Shown piece by piece: positions 5,747 through 26,943 of a stretch of 26,943 nucleotides of DNA (positions are counted from its first letter, which is position 1; each line of letters starts with the position of its first letter). The stretch comes from a virus: IMG/VR virus record IMGVR_UViG_3300035101_000063, one strand, 5' to 3'. The position numbers were made by a program, and so were the translations under genes. The notes below the pieces were generated by a model. That model was not told the origin of the DNA. It saw only the letters and a list, made by a program, of their open reading frames with translations, and searched no databases.

Positions 5747-6118
5747 TTAATTAATATCACCCCTTCTTCCGGCATCCTTGTCCATTTCCTTAATAAAAAA
5801 CTTTATATGAAAAACCTTATCCTCATTAGAAATACCAGGATAAAGCTGTCTCATCTGCCCCACCCAATGCTCACCATTGGCATATCCATCCATTTCTGAA
5901 ATAATCGGATCTCTCCTAAACATACCAACAGTACCGGGTCTAACCGTCTGCACTTCTATTTTAGCGAATGGCATATTTCTTTGACCATCTATAAATTTTG
6001 AAGTCAAAACAATTTCCCCTCCCCTAACATGTGGACAATTATCACCATATTTCCTAACAATACCACAAGCCTTACCATCCATAATCTGTTTTGTCTCAAA
6101 TCTTGTACATGCAAACAT
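5747..6118 (-). CDS. hypothetical protein (123 aa), possibly ASCH/PUA-like
   Basis: Minus ORF with AAAGGA SD; preceded 21 nt upstream by the CGAACTCGAGTTCG palindrome. Family assignment is weak. Confidence 0.4.
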   Translation of the reverse strand: MFACTRFETKQIMDGKACGIVRKYGDNCPHVRGGEIVLTSKFIDGQRNMPFAKIEVQTVRPGTVGMFRRDPIISEMDGYANGEHWVGQMRQLYPGISNEDKVFHIKFFIKEMDKDAGRRGDIN

Positions 6119-7374: not shown

Positions 7375-8145
7375 TCAACATGGCATCTCTCTTATCCTGG
7401 CCCACATTGGCCATTCATCAACAATATCACCTTTTCTACTTTTAGAACCATTTTTCTTTGCCCAAACAGTCCCCATCTGCTTGAAAAAAACCCTACAACC
7501 AAGAAGTTTAGCATATGACACAATCTTCTCAGCATTATTTTCGTTCATTTCCCTTGCTTTTTGACCAGATTCTCCACCAATAATCACCCATTCAATCCCA
7601 CGAAGATTAAAAAAATCATCCTCTACTGGAGTAACATAAGGACTAAAAATATCACCAATTAATGGTTCAAAAGATACAAATTTATGTTCAACATTCGTAC
7701 CTCTCAAAATATTAATTCTATTAACTGTTTGTCTCAATCCAACAGATACACCGTACCAAACATGGTCAAGAAATCCATTCCTTTCTTGAAAATATCTATT
7801 CATTATCTGAGCTCTTTTTGTCAAAACAATATACTTATGATGATTATATTTATTCATTGCATCATGCATATCATCAATAAAACTAAATGGTACTTCAGAA
7901 TGAAAAGGGTCTCCCATCGAACATATAAAAACCCATCTAGGTCTAGTCCATTCACCTAATTTTTTAAGCACATCTGGATGACAACGAACATCAAATCCAT
8001 CCTCATAATTCTTTTGACCCATTGCTTTCAATCGCATAGCCATTTTTTCAGCATAACAATTATCACATTCTGGACTAATCTTTGAACAACCCGTCACTGG
8101 ATTTAATGTTGCATCAGTCCAATGAATCGCACTCTTATCTCCCAT
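7375..8145 (-). CDS. phage Gp37/Gp68 family protein (DUF5131)
   Basis: N-terminus IHWTDATLNPVTGCSKISPECDNCYAEKMAMRL matches the hallmark WTDATWNP..GC...S.GC.NCYA of the Gp37/Gp68 family. Confidence 0.6.
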   Translation of the reverse strand: MGDKSAIHWTDATLNPVTGCSKISPECDNCYAEKMAMRLKAMGQKNYEDGFDVRCHPDVLKKLGEWTRPRWVFICSMGDPFHSEVPFSFIDDMHDAMNKYNHHKYIVLTKRAQIMNRYFQERNGFLDHVWYGVSVGLRQTVNRINILRGTNVEHKFVSFEPLIGDIFSPYVTPVEDDFFNLRGIEWVIIGGESGQKAREMNENNAEKIVSYAKLLGCRVFFKQMGTVWAKKNGSKSRKGDIVDEWPMWARIREMPC

Positions 8146-8210
8146 AAAACCTTATCCTTTAATCTTTTCAACTATCTATATTTTAATACTCAAAAATCAA
8201 CTTAACTCTA

Positions 8211-8591
8211 TCAACTCTTCCATATACCCATTTCTATTTTTGTCTTTTTGTACTCTCTTTTTCTGTACTCTCTTTTTATTTTACTGTTCTTCTTTACAAC
8301 TTCAACTCTTGTTCTTTCATCACAAATCATAACTTTAATATCTTTACCATATAATTTCTTCAAATCATTAGATACTTTTCCAATTACAGATTCAGACAAA
8401 CGATTTGCTGGTAATCCTTCAGTATCAATATGAACAACCAACATATCACCAGGATTAATACTAACCCTTGTTACTTCTTTTATTTTTATAAAATCATCAC
8501 TTTTAGGCATATGATATGCCATTTCTGCAAATTCTTCACCACCAATATCCATACCTATTTTTTTGAAATCTTCTTCTAATGTAGTTCTCAT
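8211..8591 (-). CDS. hypothetical protein with basic C-terminal tail
   Basis: Minus ORF; ATGA start/stop overlap with upstream gene; AGAAGG SD. Lys/Arg-rich C-terminus. Confidence 0.45.
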   Translation of the reverse strand: MRTTLEEDFKKIGMDIGGEEFAEMAYHMPKSDDFIKIKEVTRVSINPGDMLVVHIDTEGLPANRLSESVIGKVSNDLKKLYGKDIKVMICDERTRVEVVKKNSKIKREYRKREYKKTKIEMGIWKS

Positions 8592-10827: not shown

Positions 10828-11340
10828 TCAACAAATATTTACACCTAACTTAATCCATTCTTTAACTATTTTATTATAAATTTCTGTATCAAGGAATAGA
10901 ATAATACCTCTTGATTGCAATACCATTTTAACAATTAAAATCATACCAATACTATACAATCTTTTTCCTCTACCAGTTTTAAATGGTGTATCAGGTATAA
11001 CACCCGATTTAATCCAATTTTTTACTGTAGATACAGGACGACCAATATTTTCAGCTAAATCATTAATTGAAAGACCAACACACTTTTTGCCATTAACAAT
11101 AATATAAATAGGACCATTATTACGTTTTCTTGGTTTAGATTTTGGTATTTTTCCTTCAGCTCTTAATTTATCCATCTCAGCTTTTTTTTTGGCCCTATTT
11201 AATCTTGCTAATTCCTTTGCACGCTCTCTCACCTTGGAATCATTTTGATATCTTTCTTTCTTTCGTTCTGAAATTTTTTCTCTGTTTGTTTCATAATACA
11301 TACGTTGATATTCTTTTCGACTATCGGAACTACTACTCAT
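10828..11340 (-). CDS. HTH DNA-binding protein (MerR/excisionase-like helix-turn-helix near C-terminus)
   Basis: LSINDLAENIGRPVSTVKNWIKSGVIP is a typical HTH_17/MerR-type motif. Track ORF extends to 11454 and overlaps the helicase gene by 80 nt. An internal ATG at 11340 (MSSSSDSRKEY), preceded by a GGAAGGAA SD-like motif, is the more likely start. Confidence 0.45.
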   Translation of the reverse strand: MSSSSDSRKEYQRMYYETNREKISERKKERYQNDSKVRERAKELARLNRAKKKAEMDKLRAEGKIPKSKPRKRNNGPIYIIVNGKKCVGLSINDLAENIGRPVSTVKNWIKSGVIPDTPFKTGRGKRLYSIGMILIVKMVLQSRGIILFLDTEIYNKIVKEWIKLGVNIC

Positions 11341-11374
11341 AAAACCATTCCTTCCATCCCCAATGTTCCGAAAA

Positions 11375-12889
11375 TCAAGACACCTCTGTTCCAATTTTCC
11401 TATAGAACTTCTGTCTGCGCCTCCATTTCGGTAAAAGCTGGGGAATATTCTCATCTACGACATCAACTATAATAGGTTTAGGTTTTTCTTTACAATTACC
11501 AACTCTCCATGGACAATAATGTTCGCATTTTTCCTTGTCTTGATAACACCACCTTCTAGCGCGACCAACTATTTGTTCTATATCTCCCATAGGCATCGAA
11601 AGAACCAACACATCAAGCGCTTCAACATCAAATCCTTCCTCGATGCTTTGCTTAGTTGCAAAAATTACATTAGCACGTTCTGCTTTATCAAAATCAGCTT
11701 CTGTTCTTTTGACCATTTTAGGGTCACCTTTTTTATGCCTACTATTTGATTCTTCCCATACTTCTCCAGAAAACCATTCACCAGTACAAAAATCAATAGT
11801 AGGTTCAAATGGCAAATCAAGGTCAAATAAAGAATTCATCAACATGTCACTCATAAGTTTCAAATGATAAAGTCTTTCACTAACAACTATTATTTTACGA
11901 CCATTTTGAACAGCCAATACTAATTGATCAACAATATCTTTTGCTCTAAACTGATCCTTTCCAAGCTGAGTTAAAATTTGAGCACTATTCAAATTATCAA
12001 CTGATACATAATAATTACCCCTTCTTATCGGTTTCAAACATGAATAAGTCTTTAACACTCTCAAACCAGGCACTTGCGCCTTAGTTTTAGCAGAATATGT
12101 AACATCACTTATATGATTAAAAAATACGTCCTGTGCACCATCTTTTCGTCTAGGAGTTGCTGTTAAACCAACTCTCCATGCAGCATTAAATCTAGGTAAA
12201 ACAAATGACCATGAAGAAGCAGCTATTCTATGACATTCATCACTAATAACAATTCCGAATTCCGATTTATATATCCTTTCTGGATACTTATGACTATCTT
12301 TATCCCTCACTAAAGATTGAAGCATTGCAATAACAAAATCACAATCCTCAAATTCACATTTATTCTGACGAATAATTCCAACTTTAGCATCTGGCATAAA
12401 TTTTTTTATTCTATTCTTCCATTGTTTTAAAAAAAACTCTTTATGAACAATAATTAATGTCTTACGGCCAACACGTCTAGCAAACTCCAATGAACACGCT
12501 GTTTTTCCAAAAGCGCATCCTGCTTTCAACAAAAAACCATCCCACTTTTTACCCTCCATTCTAGCAAGAAATGTTCTTATTACAGCTTCCTGTTCAATGA
12601 AATTTCCAGTTGCCTGATATCTAGTAGTAAAGGCTGACATTTTACTACCATATGATATTTTTAATATTTCATCATGTTCCTTTGTAACATTTTTCCTATA
12701 CCATGCTCTAGGAACACCAATGAAATCCTCCTTTTCATCATACATATAAATAGGCTTTGGATCTGCCTTTGTAGCAATATCTGTCGTCTTCTTAGGATAT
12801 ATCGTTAATAATTCTTTTATATTTAAAATCTGTTGAGCAGACAAATCATCAATTGGCAACCAAACATTTCCACTTACAACAACTTTCAT
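11375..12889 (-). CDS. SF2 DExH-box DNA helicase (UvsW/type III res-like)
   Basis: Walker A AGCAFGKTACS, DECH box (VISDECHRIAA), arginine finger QIVGRARR; length 504 aa comparable to T4 UvsW. C-terminal Cys cluster. Confidence 0.8.
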   Translation of the reverse strand: MKVVVSGNVWLPIDDLSAQQILNIKELLTIYPKKTTDIATKADPKPIYMYDEKEDFIGVPRAWYRKNVTKEHDEILKISYGSKMSAFTTRYQATGNFIEQEAVIRTFLARMEGKKWDGFLLKAGCAFGKTACSLEFARRVGRKTLIIVHKEFFLKQWKNRIKKFMPDAKVGIIRQNKCEFEDCDFVIAMLQSLVRDKDSHKYPERIYKSEFGIVISDECHRIAASSWSFVLPRFNAAWRVGLTATPRRKDGAQDVFFNHISDVTYSAKTKAQVPGLRVLKTYSCLKPIRRGNYYVSVDNLNSAQILTQLGKDQFRAKDIVDQLVLAVQNGRKIIVVSERLYHLKLMSDMLMNSLFDLDLPFEPTIDFCTGEWFSGEVWEESNSRHKKGDPKMVKRTEADFDKAERANVIFATKQSIEEGFDVEALDVLVLSMPMGDIEQIVGRARRWCYQDKEKCEHYCPWRVGNCKEKPKPIIVDVVDENIPQLLPKWRRRQKFYRKIGTEVS

Positions 12890-12898
12890 AATACAACC

Positions 12899-13909
12899 TC
12901 AAAACGGTATATCATCATCATTGGGACCATTAGGTCCTACATATTGACCACTATCACCAAAACCAACTCCATACGTTTTAGGAGGCTCTCTCATGCCAGT
13001 TTGCATATTACTACGTACCATCCCTTGTCTTTGTCCATCATGAAACGATTTATTACCTCTATTATCTCCCCATCCTACAAGCTCATCAAGTTTTGCCTGA
13101 TAATCATCAACATCAATATCAAATACCCCTTTTTTCGAATCTGGATCTGTATATACTGGTATATCCAATTTTAAATATTCTGGATCTGCACCCCATCTAA
13201 CAAGATATTCCTCAAAGTGTTCAGGTGAAATTCTATCTACAAAAGACCAATCATTACCTACAATAGGTTCTTTTTTTCCAGTTCTAGTTGTATCCCATAT
13301 TGTACCAGTCAAATCCTCAATACCATGTTGTTGCCTTATTTCTGCTAACCTTCTCTGTAATGTCTTCATAACACCTGGATTATCAACAGATCCTCTTTTA
13401 GCACCTAGTAAAACTCTCTGAAAAGACCTCTCAAATCGGTCACCATTATCATTCTCCCAATATTCATGATGCAATCTTACCCTATTTCCTCTCCGTTCAA
13501 CCTGTCCCATGTCAATAACTGGTAAAAATCCAATAAAATATGCAAAATCCTTTCCACCCTTTTTAGAACAAACAGGACATGGTATCTTTGAGATACCATT
13601 TTTTTCTAAACAAATTGCTGTAAATGCTTCAAAAATATTATAAGCATTTTTAAATCTCCATAAACTATGTTCATAAATATTAAAAGGAGAACCATCCAAA
13701 AAAAGCACTCGTTTAGTAGCAGATGAACCAGGATTTACTAAATTTGGTTTTTTATCCGTACCCTTTGGTGTTGGAATTGAAAATCTAAATCTATAGAGTC
13801 TTTCATTTTCAGTAATCTTATTCCCACTATCACTACTGTCATAATCGCTATCATAACTATCATATTCATCTGGGTCTCCCCATCCTTTACTATAAGTTCC
13901 AATGCCCAT
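12899..13909 (-). CDS. putative ssDNA-binding protein (gp32-like Zn site) with SSB-type C-terminal tip DDDIPF
   Basis: H-x19-C-x10-C-x2-C arrangement (YEH...AIC...PCPVC) resembles the T4 gp32 Zn site. Long Gly/Gln-rich disordered linker ends ...GPNGPNDDDIPF, like bacterial SSB. Track start 13966 lacks SD and abuts the palindrome. The ATG at 13909 has GGAGAAAAAATG, so it is preferred. Confidence 0.4.
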   Translation of the reverse strand: MGIGTYSKGWGDPDEYDSYDSDYDSSDSGNKITENERLYRFRFSIPTPKGTDKKPNLVNPGSSATKRVLFLDGSPFNIYEHSLWRFKNAYNIFEAFTAICLEKNGISKIPCPVCSKKGGKDFAYFIGFLPVIDMGQVERRGNRVRLHHEYWENDNGDRFERSFQRVLLGAKRGSVDNPGVMKTLQRRLAEIRQQHGIEDLTGTIWDTTRTGKKEPIVGNDWSFVDRISPEHFEEYLVRWGADPEYLKLDIPVYTDPDSKKGVFDIDVDDYQAKLDELVGWGDNRGNKSFHDGQRQGMVRSNMQTGMREPPKTYGVGFGDSGQYVGPNGPNDDDIPF

Positions 13910-13969
13910 TTTTTCTCCATTTCGTGATCCTATATCACCATCTTTTTCGTGCTCTATTAGCACCATTTA

Positions 13970-14139: not shown

Positions 14140-15486
14140 CTAAAATGGTATCCCCTCTTCCTCTTCATTATTTTCCTCTTCTTCAATTTCACCAAACTCC
14201 ATTCTATCAAAATCCCAATGAACCTTTATCTCTGGTTTCTTATATTGACCTCTACGAAGTTTTAAATTTTTAAATTTCATTACTTTATCATCTTTATCAT
14301 CTTTATTTTGTATTAATGCATAAACAGCATGAACATCCTGCCCAATCTCATCAGCTAATGCAATTGTTCCAAGCCTTGCCCCTCCCCCCTTCTTCTCCGA
14401 AAGCTCAGCAGTCCTATTCTGCTGTGCAAAACCTATCGCAGCATAGCCAAGCTCCTTGCAACTTCGCTTCATCCATCCAAGAGCCTCCACGGCTCTTTCA
14501 CGACGATCCCCTTTAATATGTAGGTCATAAATCGAATCAACAGCAACAAGCTCAGCATTACAAGCACGAATTGCAGCATCTATACCACGCGGACTCAAAT
14601 CATCATCAGAATCCATAATCCACAATCCATCCTTACCAGCCTCACCATTAATTGTATTTACAAATTTTTGCTCCATAACAGTTGGAAGTTGACCAGTAAT
14701 AACACTATGGTAACTAACATCAGAATGGATAGTAAAAAATCTCTCAGCTATCTCATCTTTACTCATTTCTGGTGAAACAACCAAGACACGTTTATCTTTC
14801 ATCCAGGCATGTCTACCACATATAACACAGACGAACGTTTTCCCAACTGAAGGTCGAGCAACAAACATAGTAACAGTTTTGGGCCATGCACCTGCCGTCA
14901 TATCATCTATTGTTTTCCACGGAAATGGAATACCCCTATATCCATCAGCAGCCTTTCTATAATTCTCAAGAACCTTTCCTCCAATATCCAATAAATTATG
15001 TGGCATTCTATGCCTAGAAAGGTCCTGTGCTGCATTCAACAGGGATTCAAGACTAGGAGATAAAGAATCTATACCTTCTGCTTTAAATCCATCATAAACA
15101 ACTTTCTGAGCATTATAAATTACACGACGTATAGCACTAGCTTCCCTAACTATATTTGCATAATGACCCACATTTGATGGTGCAGATACAAAATCTGTCA
15201 ATTGCGATAATGCAATTGCACCACCTATATTTTTTAATTGACCTTGCTCTCTTAATCTATTTCCTAATGTGACATGATCAACAGGTATCCCAGCCTCGAA
15301 CAAAGAATACATGCCATAAAAAATTATTCTATTGGAATTTATATAAAAATCTTCTTCATTTACATTAGCAAAAACTTCACCCCAACAATCATTATTCAAA
15401 AGAACAGATCCAAGAACAGCATTTTCAGCTTCTTCATTGTATGGTGGTATATTAGGTCCACCTTTAGAATCGCAAATATTGCTCAT
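14140..15486 (-). CDS. dnaB: DnaB-like replicative DNA helicase with acidic ...EEEEGIPF C-terminal tip
   Basis: N-terminal domain (PPYNEEAENAVLGSVLLNNDCWGEV...NRIIFYGM...IPVDHVTLGNRL...GGAIALSQL), Walker A ARPSVGKTFVCV, RecA-like C-terminal domain. Appended EEEENNEEEEGIPF tail. Confidence 0.85.
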   Translation of the reverse strand: MSNICDSKGGPNIPPYNEEAENAVLGSVLLNNDCWGEVFANVNEEDFYINSNRIIFYGMYSLFEAGIPVDHVTLGNRLREQGQLKNIGGAIALSQLTDFVSAPSNVGHYANIVREASAIRRVIYNAQKVVYDGFKAEGIDSLSPSLESLLNAAQDLSRHRMPHNLLDIGGKVLENYRKAADGYRGIPFPWKTIDDMTAGAWPKTVTMFVARPSVGKTFVCVICGRHAWMKDKRVLVVSPEMSKDEIAERFFTIHSDVSYHSVITGQLPTVMEQKFVNTINGEAGKDGLWIMDSDDDLSPRGIDAAIRACNAELVAVDSIYDLHIKGDRRERAVEALGWMKRSCKELGYAAIGFAQQNRTAELSEKKGGGARLGTIALADEIGQDVHAVYALIQNKDDKDDKVMKFKNLKLRRGQYKKPEIKVHWDFDRMEFGEIEEEENNEEEEGIPF

Positions 15487-15633
15487 AATTATATTAAATA
15501 TCTGTAGGTAATTCTCTTCTTTTAATAAGAAATTCTAATTTTTGTGTTTTGATACTCATTACTGCCTCCATAATATTTTATTTCAAACAAGACTTATTCT
15601 AAAAAGAATACTATATTCAACTCAAAATACTCA

Positions 15634-16329
15634 TCAATTACCACTTAATATAGACTTTAATCTATCTACAGAGCCATCTCTCTTATTATCACCAATAACA
15701 GGAACAGGAATTGTACATTCTCCTAAAGCATGAATAGTAGATTTTTTCAAATCAAGTTCTTCTTGCCAACGTTTTGGAGAAATATTTGAAGTAATTATAG
15801 TAACTTTTTTATTTGCATTTCTAGACCTAATTAATTCATCAAAAATCGTTGCACCAAAACCAGTATTATCCATTATACCCTTTCCAAAATCATCAATTAC
15901 TAATACATCTACATCTTTAGAACGTTCCCAATATGTCTCATCATCATCAAAATATTCTTTACTAGCAACCAATCGTTTTAAATCAGCAGCTTCTATAAAT
16001 AAAACAGTATTACCACGTCTGCGAAATTCTTTTGCTAAAACAACAGAAGCACATGATTTCCCAGTTCCATTATCACCATAAAATATAAAACCACCACCTT
16101 CTTTTCTCATTTTAGCCATATTTAAAATATATTTTTCAACCATACTTTTAAGACTATCTTGTCCATCTACATAAATATCTGTAAGATTATAAAAACTTGC
16201 TTTCCAATAACGTTTAGGTATATGCATTCGCTCCAAATCATTAGCACATAAATCGCGCCGAAAAGGAACATTAGAAAACATTTTACCAGCCAATTTTTGT
16301 TGACCCATCAAGTTCTGGATCATATTCAC
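15634..16329 (-). CDS. DnaC/IstB-like AAA+ helicase loader
   Basis: Walker A GDNGTGKSCASVVLAKEF, Walker B VLVIDDFG, size 231 aa, located immediately downstream of DnaB-like gene. Confidence 0.7.
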   Translation of the reverse strand: MNMIQNLMGQQKLAGKMFSNVPFRRDLCANDLERMHIPKRYWKASFYNLTDIYVDGQDSLKSMVEKYILNMAKMRKEGGGFIFYGDNGTGKSCASVVLAKEFRRRGNTVLFIEAADLKRLVASKEYFDDDETYWERSKDVDVLVIDDFGKGIMDNTGFGATIFDELIRSRNANKKVTIITSNISPKRWQEELDLKKSTIHALGECTIPVPVIGDNKRDGSVDRLKSILSGN

Positions 16330-16903
16330 CTACCATATGTTTTTTCTTTTTGGGCTTTTTTCTACCAGGAACATTACCCAATTTAGCATCAACAAATATC
16401 CTATCTCTACCAACCCATAAAAATCTAACATTGGGTGCACCAGAAAGTCTTCCGTTACTATTATCAATCATAGCTTGCCAATTATCACAAAACCACTCAA
16501 CAGTTTTCTCTACAATCTCTGGCCCATAATGTTTCAATAACTTGTTGGCACATGTTATTTCTTCTATGCCCCACCAAGTCTGTTTTTTCTCACTAACATC
16601 ATCACCTTTATCTACCACAAGCCAATCAGAATTATTTTTTCTTATTCCTTTCACAAACCAACGCTGAACACAAAACCAATTTATCACGTCCTTTTTAGTT
16701 TGTCTATTATCTCCAGCAGATTTGTCAACTGTTGATTGAGTATAACAATCTTTAAAAGAAGGTGTTTCAGGTTTTAACTCTTGCTTTATTTTATTTTTTT
16801 CTTTACGTTTTTCTCTAGCTTTTTCTTCAAGCCTTAAAGTATTTTCTTTGATATCTTCAATTTTTTTTGAAAACTTTTTTCTCCAATTATTTCCCACTAT
16901 CAT
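16283..16903 (-). CDS. hypothetical basic protein (206 aa), possible replication initiation accessory
   Basis: Minus ORF overlapping loader gene; Lys-rich N-terminal coiled-coil-like segment. Function unknown. Confidence 0.4.
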   Translation of the reverse strand: MIVGNNWRKKFSKKIEDIKENTLRLEEKAREKRKEKNKIKQELKPETPSFKDCYTQSTVDKSAGDNRQTKKDVINWFCVQRWFVKGIRKNNSDWLVVDKGDDVSEKKQTWWGIEEITCANKLLKHYGPEIVEKTVEWFCDNWQAMIDNSNGRLSGAPNVRFLWVGRDRIFVDAKLGNVPGRKKPKKKKHMVGEYDPELDGSTKIGW

Positions 16904-17153
16904 ATTCTCTACCTTCCAACAAATTCACAGAAGATGCCTGTAAATCCTTCAGTGTTCCATTTATTTCAACCAATAATTCAACCCAATCCTCCTTATAATT
17001 GATACCACACAAACGTTTGCAGTCATTAGAAAAAGCAACCGCTTCAAAATCATTCATTTCAACAATACGGTCTCTCCAGGATGTTACTTTTCTAATCCAT
17101 CCGATACCATATTTTGTTTCGACTTTATCGCCGATGAAGTATTTTCGAGCCAT
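16887..17153 (-). CDS. hypothetical protein (88 aa)
   Basis: Minus ORF with AAGGGA SD at proper spacing; start lies 70 nt inside the upstream gene. Confidence 0.4.
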   Translation of the reverse strand: MARKYFIGDKVETKYGIGWIRKVTSWRDRIVEMNDFEAVAFSNDCKRLCGINYKEDWVELLVEINGTLKDLQASSVNLLEGREYDSGK

Positions 17154-17596
17154 TCTAATCCCTTAATTTTCCTAGCATCATCTACTAGAATCTCTCTATG
17201 GTCATTCATCCAAATTGGAGCACGAAAAATAACATCATTCCAAGACCAACCATCAAGCACTAACAACTCAGCAGCAATCACATTATATAATATATTATTT
17301 TGTTCAGATATTAATTTAGCACTATTTAATATATCTCTTAATCTATCATAAAATAATACAAAATGGTCTTCATTAGGTCTATTTAATATAATACTATTTC
17401 CATCATCTAATAAGATTTCAATAGAATTCACACCAAATGCTTCTGATAATTCAAAAACAACTTCACCCATTCCAAATAAAATTAAATCTTCTAAATCAAA
17501 TTTATCATTAAATTCATCATTAAATTCATCATTAAATTCATCATTAAATTCATCATTAACATGTTTTATAGGAAATAATAAATTATTTTCTTTCAT
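17084..17596 (-). CDS. hypothetical protein with N-terminal (NDEF)x4-5 tandem repeat
   Basis: Minus ORF; repeat encoded by 12-nt tandem array. Confidence 0.45.
   Translation of the reverse strand: MKENNLLFPIKHVNDEFNDEFNDEFNDEFNDKFDLEDLILFGMGEVVFELSEAFGVNSIEILLDDGNSIILNRPNEDHFVLFYDRLRDILNSAKLISEQNNILYNVIAAELLVLDGWSWNDVIFRAPIWMNDHREILVDDARKIKGLEWLENTSSAIKSKQNMVSDGLEK
17498..17557. repeat. 12-nt tandem repeat AAATTCATCATT x5 (first copy imperfect) encoding DEFN repeats
   Basis: Direct reading. Confidence 0.85.
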
Positions 17597-17654: not shown

Positions 17655-17981
17655 TCAACCCATACGTTTTAGATAATTTCCTTTTTCATATTCTCTACGC
17701 TTATCTTCATCCGTAACATAATCCATAATAATTTGTATTTTATTTTTACCTTGAATTGCAGACAAAAATGAACGAATAGAATTAACTAAATGAGCATTCC
17801 TACCAATAACCTGACCAACATCTTTAGGATGTGTTCTTAAAGCCACAAGAGCACTATAACCATTACTCTCTATATCAACCTGAACATCCTCTGGATGATT
17901 TACAAAATGACGAACAAGCATTACTACTTCACGAATAGCATCTATTACCAATGGATCAATTTTACCTAAATTTTTACCCAT
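17655..17981 (-). CDS. KH-domain RNA-binding protein, KhpA/YlqC-like (KH_4)
   Basis: VNHPEDVQVDIESNGYSALVALRTHPKDVGQVIGRNAHLVNSIRSFL matches the KhpA pattern (hPEDV.V...l.l.v.p.DmGkVIGk.Gr...aiR.ll). Track start at 18014 is TTG and overlaps the upstream gene. ATG at 17981 (MGKNLGK) preferred. C-terminal extension of about 30 aa. Confidence 0.55.
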   Translation of the reverse strand: MGKNLGKIDPLVIDAIREVVMLVRHFVNHPEDVQVDIESNGYSALVALRTHPKDVGQVIGRNAHLVNSIRSFLSAIQGKNKIQIIMDYVTDEDKRREYEKGNYLKRMG

Positions 17982-17982
17982 A

Positions 17983-18297
17983 TCAAATACCCAAATCAGC
18001 CTTTCTGGTCGCAATTTCCGTATTACGACGTTCTACCAATATCTTAGCATCCTCCTCATTTATTCCTTCACGATGTTTCCAATTTGTCCTCATTGCCCGC
18101 TCTCTAGAAGCATGAAGTTCTTTAAATTGACGACTATATCTTCTCACCATACTTCTAATCTCATCCTGTGTTTTTATCGGCAAATATCCATTGTTTTGTA
18201 AAAAACATCTTGCTTCATTAATAAATTTACGTTTATCTATAGGTAACTTAATACTCACAAAATCATTCAATATTTCACATATACTCATCTGTTCCAT
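17983..18297 (-). CDS. hypothetical protein (104 aa)
   Basis: Minus ORF with GAGGTG SD and predicted promoter upstream. Confidence 0.45.
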   Translation of the reverse strand: MEQMSICEILNDFVSIKLPIDKRKFINEARCFLQNNGYLPIKTQDEIRSMVRRYSRQFKELHASRERAMRTNWKHREGINEEDAKILVERRNTEIATRKADLGI

Positions 18298-18325
18298 GCT
18301 TGCATCACCTCAGCATCTATATTAT

Positions 18326-18355
18326 TTTATAATAGATATTATTAATATATGTCAA
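18326..18355 (-). promoter_or_regulatory. sigma70-like promoter TTGACA-18-TATAAA on minus strand
   Basis: rc of 18350-18355 is TTGACA; rc of 18326-18331 is TATAAA. Sits in a 129-nt AT-rich intergenic region about 30 nt upstream of the 17983..18297 start. Confidence 0.4.
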
Positions 18356-22619: not shown

Positions 22620-22967
22620 TTATTCTTTATCTTCAACTTCGTCTTCAACTTCGTCTTCAACTTCGTCTTCAACTTCGTCTTCAACTATACCTAAAATATC
22701 ACTCCAAGGTATAACAACACGTTTCTCACGACCAAAATTTATCTCTGTACCTGAATATCTTCCAATAAAAATCCTATCACCAACTTTTACATCAGGAATA
22801 ACAAGTGTTCCATCAGACATTACCCTACCAGGACCAACAGCCAAAACAACAGCAGTATCTGGAACTTCTTTAGTATTCAAAGGAAGTACAATACCACCAG
22901 GTGATTTCTTTTCCGCTGGTTCATCTCTCTCCACAAATACATTATCATGAAACGGTTTTATTTTCAT
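22620..22967 (-). CDS. groES: co-chaperonin GroES (Hsp10) homologue with (EDEV)n acidic repeat tail
   Basis: MKIKPFHDNVFVERDEPAEKKSPGGIVLP...AVVLAVGPGR...VKVGDRIFIGRYSGTEI...VIPWSDILGIV aligns along its whole length with GroES (MNIRPLHDRVIVKR.E.E.KSAGGIVL...GEVLAVGNGR...VKVGDIVIF..Y.G........ESDILAIV). AAGGA SD 8 nt upstream of the ATG at 22967; the track Met at 22982 lies inside the SD. Confidence 0.8.
   Translation of the reverse strand: MKIKPFHDNVFVERDEPAEKKSPGGIVLPLNTKEVPDTAVVLAVGPGRVMSDGTLVIPDVKVGDRIFIGRYSGTEINFGREKRVVIPWSDILGIVEDEVEDEVEDEVEDEVEDKE
22631..22686. repeat. 12-nt tandem repeat CTTCAACTTCGT x about 4.7 encoding the EDEV repeats of the GroES tail
   Basis: Direct reading. Confidence 0.85.
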
Positions 22968-26430: not shown

Positions 26431-26943
26431 AACAAATATTATTACTCAATTATAATACAAAATCAACATTTTTAAAATCCAATTCCTTTTCTGCTCCAAT
26501 CCCTTCTATTCCTTTTCTGCTCTTCTACATTTTGCTCTGCAATGCTCTATTCTGTTCCATATCACTTCACATCAGTTCAATTCCTCTCGAATCCTTCTCT
26601 GCTCGAATCTATTCTCTTCCTATCTTTTCCTTTTCCTCTATAACCTATTCACTTCGACTCCGTTCTTCTCCACACCATTTCTTATCACTTCCGTTCCCAT
26701 CTAATCCTTTTCTAACTTTTCCAAACTGATCAACTCAACTCCATCTCCGCTCGACGCCTTTCCTTTCCCTTCCATTTTATTTCCATTCAATTCCAGTGTT
26801 CTCTATTCCTTTTCCTCTCTCAACCAATCGCCTCAACACAGATCCATTTCGTCTCATCTCAGTTCATGTCAGGACTAATCCTTATCCTTTCATCTCAACT
26901 AGCGTCTATTCCCTTCCTTTTCAGTTTAGCTCAAGTCCGTTCT
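26431..26943. repeat. roughly 500-nt ORF-free polypyrimidine (plus) / polypurine (minus) tract with degenerate short repeats ((A/T)TTCCTTTTC(T/C)(G/T)C at least 3 times); GGA/AGGA-dense on the minus strand
   Basis: Plus strand here is almost exclusively C/T with very few G. The only track ORF is an S/L/F/P junk frame. All neighbouring genes point away from it. Confidence 0.7.

Follow-up and report, generated by a model that had tools for sequence, protein, structure and literature searches.

A phage-type subfamily of KhpA-like KH-domain proteins in the replication module of large uncultured phages

It is only recently that KhpA and KhpB were recognised as global RNA-binding proteins, in bacteria that mostly have neither Hfq nor ProQ. 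What place does a protein of this family have in the genome of a phage? The question is raised by IMG/VR virus record IMGVR_UViG_3300035101_000063, a stretch of 26,943 nucleotides (nt) that is referred to here, over its whole length, as the window. At 17655..17981 on the minus strand it carries a gene that an earlier note, made from the letters alone, had described as encoding a KhpA/YlqC-like protein with a KH_4 signature. Judged from its sequence, this open reading frame (ORF) is a divergent, phage-specific member of the KhpA/KhpB family, with one type II KH (KH-II) domain, an LDYVTE motif and a short, disordered tail rich in Arg and Lys. Wherever this was checked, on contigs of up to about 190 kilobases (kb), the gene is a vertically inherited part of the early/replication module of large uncultured phages.

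The gene encodes 108 amino acids (aa) and runs from an ATG at 17981-17979 to a TGA at 17657-17655. The Met at 17981 lines up in all homologues in the alignment, which fixes the 108-aa start; a TTG start at 18014, giving 119 aa, was rejected as an artefactual extension that overlaps the conserved C-terminus of the upstream gene. The motifs HPEDVQV and DVGQVIGRNAHLVNSIR can both be read directly in the 108-aa protein. Residues 21-83 match the Pfam family PF13083 (KH_KhpA-B, earlier called KH_4) at E = 8.6e-11 and a score of 42 bits, over a gathering cutoff of 32.1, and as a sequence match this is far above chance. The same family is present as a precomputed annotation in all listed homologues. 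Among all Protein Data Bank (PDB) sequences, phmmer returned a single match, the KhpA of Mycobacterium tuberculosis (7xqc; 3.2e-8). A profile search of the PDB again placed this protein first (2.8e-16, 62.6 bits), followed by KhpB (1.7e-3, 21.5 bits) and the KH domain of uS3 (about 2e-3).

A structural model agrees with this assignment. The AlphaFold2 (AF2) model, built on 20 homologues, has a mean predicted local distance difference test score (pLDDT) of 81.6 and a predicted template modelling score of 0.70. Its elements are a helix at residues 10-25, strands at 34-40 and 43-49, helices at 52-61 and 63-80, and a strand at 83-89, followed by a low-confidence C-terminal helix (pLDDT about 50 for residues 91-108). 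As modelled, the protein is a single type II KH domain of a-b-b-a-a-b topology, spanning about residues 10-89. When this model was compared with the PDB by Foldseek, it retrieved the KH domains of uS3, KhpB/EloR and Era with a probability of about 1.0. Template modelling scores for the uS3 and Era domains were 0.45-0.53 over about 80 residues, and the E-values are modest because the domain is only about that long. Foldseek against the viral structures of BFVD gave weak matches alone (E of at least 0.015), to uncharacterised proteins. The profile match and the model together bear out the ORF and the KH_4 signature that the earlier note had proposed.

Beyond the domain, a C-terminal extension (17658..17723, minus strand) comprises the LDYVTE-type motif, (L/M)DYVT(D/E)ED in the subfamily, and then a basic tail, DKRREYEKGNYLKRMG, with an isoelectric point of 9.8. 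The gene as a whole is under purifying selection. The ratio of nonsynonymous to synonymous substitution rates is 0.18 between the window and locus L012 and 0.23 between loci L010 and L011 (loci compared with the window carry L numbers throughout); in more distant pairs, synonymous sites are saturated.

How, then, is this protein related to the KhpA of bacteria? A word-indexed search with the KH protein found 20 clusters at 50-100% identity. The profile of those 20 clusters was run by exhaustive HMMER search against 1.84 billion representatives and recovered 3115 proteins at E up to 1e-3, and about 45 of the top matches have the full length of the family. A second profile search set apart about 57 clusters (at 90% identity) scoring 96-137 bits, which are taken here as a phage-type subfamily. 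The next scores, at 83 bits or less, belong to cellular KhpA from Parcubacteria/Paceibacterota and from metagenome-assembled genomes (MAGs) of Actinomycetia. The contigs carrying the subfamily are all of 188 kb or less, whereas lower-scoring matches lie on contigs of 0.5-1 megabases.

The subfamily has a sequence signature of its own, DVGQVIGRx(G/A), followed by a C-terminal (L/F)DY(V/I)T(E/D) and a tail of about 15 residues. The second motif stands where cellular KhpA ends in LDI(I/V)E, and Arg makes up 23% of the tails, whose mean net charge is +2.6. The window protein has the signature and the basic tail, a partner gene ending in DLG[IF] upstream, and a place upstream of the helicase loader and DnaB, as the subfamily is defined. 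An identical protein (P0001, 100%) occurs on metagenomic contigs; contigs of 113-188 kb carry relatives, as do two viral contigs of IMG/VR. On this sequence evidence, the KH protein belongs to a distinct phage-type subfamily of the KhpA/KhpB KH family that is made up of metagenomic sequences only.

Comparison with the curated KhpA models points the same way. Against the NCBIfam KhpA equivalogs PRK02821, PRK00468 and PRK01064, the window protein scores 51.8, 39.3 and 32.2 bits, where the cutoffs are 106, 106 and 85. Since it falls below all of these, the protein is by sequence a homologue, rather than an orthologue, of cellular KhpA. Its genomic context also differs. Cellular khpA lies in the context rpsP-khpA-(rimM)-trmD, as seen in the bacterial comparison loci L013 (rpsP-khpA-trmD), L014 (khpA-trmD) and L022 (ffh-rpsP-khpA), whereas the neighbours of the window gene are a partner gene, three ORFans, a DnaC-like loader and DnaB. 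The description as KhpA/YlqC-like thus holds as a statement of KH-domain homology; it does not extend to KhpA itself, given the equivalog scores, the context and the GRNA sequence of the loop discussed below.

The gene also proved, as the earlier note had supposed, not to be a standard phage gene. The window protein has no match in PHROGs v4 at E up to 1, and none of 42 subfamily members matches a relevant PHROG family, the one hit being a spurious match to a head-tail adaptor (E = 0.0028). A tblastn search of 50,697 phage records (INPHARED) found no genuine phage match. Its two matches, both in records marked 'UNVERIFIED' that span 4.5-5.1 kb, were rejected as bacterial: OR847145.1 (L021) holds a Listeria-type KhpA of 76 aa followed by a glutamine amidotransferase, and MT839141.1 (L022) is a bacterial chromosome fragment with ffh-rpsP-khpA. 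No paper on KhpA or YlqC proteins encoded by phages came up in full-text literature searches.

Two bacterial fragments among phage records raise the question of whether the window gene is itself nothing but a cellular khpA, on a bacterial contig that was misassembled or misclassified, and the binning of L012 in the MAG of an 'uncultured archaeon' might be read in the same direction. This explanation is effectively refuted. The window has no rpsP, rimM or trmD beside the KH gene, which instead belongs to a one-strand phage replication and recombination module; its scores fall short of the equivalog cutoffs by about 50 bits or more; and the gap between subfamily scores of at least 96 bits and cellular KhpA scores of at most 83 bits is accompanied by contigs never longer than 188 kb. 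Relatives in IMG/VR, and an identical gene order in many independent assemblies, also speak against it. L012 (CAYUTF010000026.1, 34 kb) has this same gene order and a KH protein 83% identical to that of the window. It is probably a mis-binned phage contig, because its DnaB, its DnaC-like loader and its TTGACA/TATAAA promoter are bacterial or phage in type.

Among cellular proteins, the KhpAs of Patescibacteria (candidate phyla radiation, CPR), encoded in L013 at 7965..8342 and in L014 at 7977..8309, are 110-125 aa long with C-terminal extensions, and share the motif RH(I/L)VN(N/H)PDDV with the phage subfamily. They are among the best-scoring cellular matches to the subfamily profile, which was not taken as evidence about the host.

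The setting of the gene is also conserved. Across nine lineages with a GC content of 32-58%, the order partner, KH, three ORFans, DnaC-like loader, DnaB is fixed. This comparison covers all loci with enough flanking sequence, namely the window, L001-L007, L010-L012, L015, L017, L019 and L020, in which the KH protein can be as little as about 43% identical to that of the window. The GC content of L010 is 57%, of L011 54%, of L012 32%, of L015 48%, of L017 58%, and of L019 and L020 58%. In most relatives, DnaB is followed by a primase, then a candidate single-stranded DNA-binding protein (SSB), then a ResIII helicase, and a DUF932 gene is often found upstream of the partner-KH pair. In the window, the DnaC/IstB-like helicase loader lies at 15634..16329 on the minus strand (PF01695, 2.3e-9; phrog_50 'DnaC-like helicase loader', 2.3e-31). 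The DnaB-type replicative helicase is encoded at 14140..15486 on the minus strand; in the near-identical contig L001, the ORF in the same place, of 448 aa, has PF00772/PF03796 matches. The statement that the KH gene lies among phage replication genes is therefore well founded, since the loader, DnaB, a ResIII/SNF2 helicase, RecA, a RuvC-like resolvase, methylases and GroES all lie on the same strand.

Immediately upstream of the KH gene lies its partner (17983..18297, minus strand), which encodes 104 aa ending in KADLGI. Its TGA stop falls 1 nt before the KH ATG, a spacing from which it is probable that the two genes are translationally coupled. A homologous partner precedes the KH gene in L001-L007, L010, L011, L012, L015, L017 and L019, with a gap of 1-16 nt; in L019 it is uncalled in the annotation but present in frame. 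Across these loci, the partners are about 100-120 aa long and share an ARERAR helix and an invariant DLG[IF] end. The window partner has no match in Pfam, PHROG or NCBIfam. Its AF2 model is all-helical, with five helices and a pLDDT of 83, and Foldseek against the PDB returned nothing below E = 2.5. The possibility that the partner is a KhpB-like (KH+R3H) protein was rejected because this model is all-helical.

The pair is preceded by a putative sigma-70-like promoter (18326..18355, minus strand), recognised by its match to the consensus, with TTGACA at 18355-18350, an 18-nt spacer and TATAAA at 18331-18326. The -35 hexamer is perfect, and both hexamers are kept in L012 despite diverged flanking intergenic DNA. 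A Shine-Dalgarno-like GAGGTGA (18305..18311, minus strand) stands 7 nt upstream of the partner ATG at 18297. An intrinsic terminator was looked for around the KH gene and none was found. The KH gene is thus probably co-transcribed with its coupled partner from this promoter. The conservation of its hexamers in L012 suggests that host sigma-70 RNA polymerase transcribes the pair, which would then probably be expressed early.

What might the protein do in this setting? The reading favoured here, tentatively and at somewhat less than an even chance, is that it is a single-stranded nucleic acid binder, likely an RNA regulator or chaperone of early and replication transcripts. The GxxIGxx(G/A) loop, the cleft between alpha3 and beta3, and the basic tail would together grip a short stretch of single-stranded nucleic acid. 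RNA would be the most likely substrate, since it is what the family, both KhpA and KhpB, has been documented to bind (PMC11261784, PMC13015501, PMC12408800). The protein could then regulate or chaperone the transcripts of phage early and replication genes after transcription, possibly together with its partner. Several points weigh against this proposal. KH domains bind single-stranded DNA (ssDNA) as well as RNA (PMC11261784), and with the gene placed among those for DNA replication, ssDNA has to be reckoned with as an alternative substrate. The fixed position may reflect nothing beyond vertical inheritance of a collinear module, with no functional link. In addition, the window protein and its close relatives have Ala in place of the last Gly of the GXXG motif.

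The position of the gene is the starting point for a different proposal, in which the KH protein and its partner bind at the phage origin, to ssDNA, to an RNA primer or to an R-loop, and assist the initiator, the DnaC-like loader and DnaB at initiation. The KH protein and its DLG[IF]-tailed partner would then form a two-protein component, not recognised before, of the replication-initiation apparatus in large uncultured phages of a widespread lineage, acting ahead of DnaC/DnaB loading. In all loci examined, across wide divergence, KH lies invariably three genes upstream of the loader/DnaB genes, and the genes in between are all lineage-specific ORFans without assigned function. The general capacity of KH domains to bind ssDNA (PMC11261784) would suit such a role. 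The initiator might be ORFan Z (16283..16903, minus strand; 206 aa), which lies directly upstream of the loader gene and overlaps its start. ORFan Z was found at eight of the eight loci compared, with 18 invariant columns that include W, C and a C-terminal ...GW, and has no match in Pfam, PHROG, NCBIfam or a profile search against the PDB; with position as the sole ground, it is the best candidate for the origin-binding initiator of the module.

Against this, the module is collinear throughout, so that position alone is weak evidence, and the closest characterised relatives, KhpA and KhpB, are RNA binders. The module also already has a candidate SSB, a 355-aa ORFan downstream of DnaB (12899..13966, minus strand) that is kept at the same position in relatives. 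No KhpA-family protein is known to have a replication role. The replication proposal is considered unlikely, although it stands first among the alternatives; if true, it would describe the first KhpA-family protein recruited to DNA replication.

The candidate SSB ends in ...NDDDIPF, matches phrog_17226, a family without assigned function, and has a Cys-rich CPVC segment. Acidic-hydrophobic tips are classic for bacterial SSB, and on its DDDIPF tip the protein is a candidate atypical SSB. The C-terminus of DnaB, ...EEEEGIPF, has a similar tip. A PDB sequence search with the 355-aa protein found nothing, and a supposed likeness to T4 gp32 has no support there.

The extended GXXIGXXG nucleic-acid-binding loop (17793..17816, minus strand) reads G56-Q-V-I-G60-R-N-A63 and so ends in Ala, where the motif has Gly. 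Of 20 close homologues, 18 share GRNA; GRNG and GRHG occur in the two that diverge most. At this last position, Gly stands in 57, Ala in 28 and Thr in 1 of the 86 phage-type sequences, while other KhpA homologues have Gly in 165 of 168. Distant members have GRSG (L010), GRQG (L011), GKNG (L015), GQGG (L017) and GRQG (L019). The presence of GxxG in divergent members makes it probable that the canonical form is ancestral in the subfamily, and the occurrence of Gly or Ala alone (plus one Thr) suggests that a small residue appears to be required.

The remainder of the loop has also been kept. In the alignment of close homologues, where mean column identity is 54%, G56, V58 and G60 are invariant and I59, R61, N62, A63 and H64 nearly so. 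The near-invariance of R61, N62, A63 and H64, together with the restriction to Gly or Ala at position 63, argues that the loop of the window clade is still functionally constrained. The variable loop positions, RN, are basic plus polar, the same type as in the GKNG loop of the RNA-binding Campylobacter jejuni KhpA, for which the extended motif has been given as GXXIGXXG (PMC13015501). In C. jejuni KhpA, both RNA binding and homodimerisation are lost in the AXXA (AKNA) and GDDG variants, yet KhpB heterodimerisation persists; these variants do not include a substitution of the last Gly alone (PMC13015501). In Thermus thermophilus KhpB, contact between the GXXG loop and RNA is loose, and binding is unchanged by G83D (PMC12408800). 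Since the AXXA and GDDG variants lose binding but G83D does not, the Gly-to-Ala change, as read from sequence, neither proves nor excludes a loss of RNA binding.

If binding had been lost in the window clade, the KH fold might act as a protein-protein adaptor only, docking, for example, the DLG[IF] tip of the partner. The canonical GXXG is indeed gone from this clade, pairing is strict with a partner whose C-terminal DLG[IF] never varies, and a modified GXXG loop is known from other, atypical KH domains (PMC11261784). Yet the R-N-A-H loop residues and the Arg-rich tail are conserved, and distant members with the same partner keep GxxG (GRSG in L010, GRQG in L011, GKNG in L015), which means that the pairing is older than, and independent of, the Gly-to-Ala change. 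An adaptor role is accordingly the most doubtful of the functional alternatives.

A second derived feature lies in helix alpha3. F72 (codon 17766..17768, minus strand) aligns with an aliphatic dimer-interface residue of KhpA, a Leu in M. tuberculosis, where R70-S71-F72 stands opposite R-T-L. This aliphatic residue is a KhpA trait that the window protein lacks. Of the 86 phage-type sequences, 34 have Phe at this position, against 2 of the 168 other KhpA homologues; Ala at the last loop position and Phe in alpha3 occur together in 21 of the 86. F72 probably corresponds to I61 of Streptococcus pneumoniae KhpA. The numbering used for this mapping agrees with the residues R53, R59, T60, I61, Y63 and S64 named for that protein (PMC6403258). 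In S. pneumoniae, I61 mediates both KhpA homodimerisation and heterodimerisation with KhpB, and the I61F variant loses the former and keeps EloR/KhpB binding (PMC6403258).

These observations allow for a host-directed role, in which the KH protein heterodimerises with the KH domain of host KhpB (Jag/EloR) and displaces host KhpA. Host KhpAB-dependent RNA regulation, for example in the control of cell division or elongation, would thereby be rewired or disabled. The window clade joins two derived features that cellular KhpA almost never shows, and both touch positions altered in laboratory variants: the AKNA variant of C. jejuni keeps wild-type KhpB heterodimerisation (PMC13015501), and I61F still binds EloR/KhpB (PMC6403258). 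However, Ala and Phe are specific to this clade, and most subfamily members have GxxG and an aliphatic residue, so capture of KhpB cannot have been the ancestral function of the subfamily. The high conservation of the loop residues would be needless in a mere decoy, the conserved phage-encoded partner points to an interaction within the phage, and the mapping to I61 is provisional. Capture of host KhpB is therefore judged improbable, somewhat more so than a replication role and slightly less so than an adaptor role.

The favoured reading, that of a phage-encoded RNA binder, can also be set against known systems. Bacterial KhpA (YlqC/UPF0109; 7xqc, S. pneumoniae) is the closest: like the phage protein, it is a single KH-II domain of about 75 residues, it is the best sequence match in both Pfam and PDB, and both retain G-x-x-I-G-x-x and an N-terminal 'V(D/N)(H/N)P(E/D)DV' motif. 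Apart from its equivalog scores, its place in a replication module, and the Ala and Phe of the window clade, the phage protein differs by an N-terminal extension of about 10-20 aa, by the LDYVTE motif and the Arg-rich tail, and by a dedicated, phage-encoded helical partner instead of KhpB. KhpB/Jag/EloR (KH + R3H; 3gku, 9lrg) belongs to the same Pfam KH family. In the HMMER alignment, the phage 'LDYVTEE.NRRR' pairs with 'kvkldTEnYReRRke' just after the KH domain of KhpB. Unlike KhpB, the phage protein has no Jag-N or R3H domain, and its all-helical partner is unrelated to KhpB.

The KH domains of uS3 and Era are the top structural matches and share the KH-II fold, but both proteins are multidomain and ribosome-bound, and the sequence similarity to uS3 is marginal (profile E about 2e-3). 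A functional precedent is found in phage T4. There, the small protein RegA binds RNA and represses the translation of early and replication mRNAs; its gene lies within the replication cluster, and it thus offers a precedent for an RNA-binding protein encoded in a replication module. Both RegA and the phage KH protein are about 100-120 aa long and are encoded in a phage replication cluster. The analogy is one of function only, as RegA is not a KH protein and has no sequence or fold relationship to the phage protein.

The earlier note went further and proposed an RNA-centred layer of host takeover, joining the KH gene to an RNA-ligase-like gene and to a putative GGA-rich RNA at the end of the window. 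This is speculation, as nothing ties either of them to the KH gene. The RNA ligase is real (PF09414, 2e-34); it lies 15.5 kb from the KH gene, and the link is unsupported. The region at the window end (about 26470..26943, minus strand), which runs off the end, is indeed purine-rich and non-coding: over more than 470 nt upstream of the KTSC gene, it is 75% purine on the transcribed strand (A 194, G 159, T 88, C 32); words of the GGAA/GAAAAGGAA type recur in it, and every frame contains stop codons. In L001, 175 nt of it are 100% identical, and an R2K ATP-grasp gene separates the region from KTSC. An Rfam scan of the whole window found no family at gathering thresholds, and no preference of KhpA/KhpB for purine-rich RNA is reported in PMC12408800. 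A link between the KH protein and this region was considered and dropped for want of evidence.

Two further observations touch on the same idea. In L017 (158 kb), an RRM_1 protein of 117 aa (15785..16138) is encoded a few kb downstream in the same module, which also has a Tad6-family protein (15250..15765) and a DnaB (11022..13562) that carries an intein with LAGLIDADG. This second eukaryote-type RNA-binding domain in the phage lineage is a small point in favour of an RNA-centred view, and RNA-binding domains may recur in the lineage. In the window, a 123-aa protein (5747..6118, minus strand) has a sub-threshold match to ASCH, a putative RNA-binding fold, at E 0.0032 and 18.6 bits against a cutoff of 21.2, which is too weak to support an RNA-related gene set.

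Two of the three ORFans between KH and the loader remain to be described. ORFan X (17084..17596, minus strand; 170 aa), with the motif LLVLDGWSW...FRAPIWM.DHRE, is conserved by synteny and alignment. It has no significant match in Pfam, NCBIfam or PDB sequences, and a weak, sub-threshold match to phrog_690 (E 0.004). ORFan Y (16887..17153, minus strand; 88 aa) has no family match in Pfam, PHROG or NCBIfam, and an ORF of similar size with a similar start follows X in L001, L007, L011 and L012. The N-terminus of ORFan X carries an NDEF tetrapeptide repeat that arises from a 12-nt tandem array of 5.2 copies (17498-17559). It is one of two near-perfect 12-nt arrays of about five copies each in coding DNA (17498..17559 and 22630..22686), and both encode acidic tetrapeptides, NDEF x4 in the case of ORFan X and, at the GroES C-terminus, VEDE x4. 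In L001, there are two D(E/D)F units only (NDEFDDEF), giving an X protein of 158 aa against 170 aa in the window, and the NDEF array appears to vary between strains.

The window as a whole (26.9 kb, GC 33%) has all of its substantial ORFs on the minus strand. Other families encoded there include a KTSC-domain protein, two DNA methyltransferases, GroES (Cpn10), a ResIII/SNF2 helicase and a helix-turn-helix protein, and further a RecA, an Hjc-like nuclease, DUF5131, a RuvC-like resolvase, a Cas4-like exonuclease and the RNA ligase; there are no tRNAs. The tblastn matches of DnaB are annotated replicative DNA helicases with at most 29% identity, and a megablast of the 8-kb neighbourhood against the 50,697 phage records returned nothing. 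By these comparisons, the window phage is without a close cultured relative from which annotation could be borrowed.

In sequence terms, a phage-only, KhpA-like subfamily is newly defined here, with its own signature, its own partner gene and a fixed place in the replication module. If RNA binding proves true, the KH protein would be a candidate for a phage post-transcriptional regulator of a new type. Binding to origin ssDNA, or capture of the host's KhpB, would instead widen what the KhpA family is known to do. The natural GxxA and Phe-for-Ile variants overlap the positions of the laboratory AXXA and I61F variants, and could be used to probe RNA binding, homodimerisation and heterodimerisation of KhpA separately.

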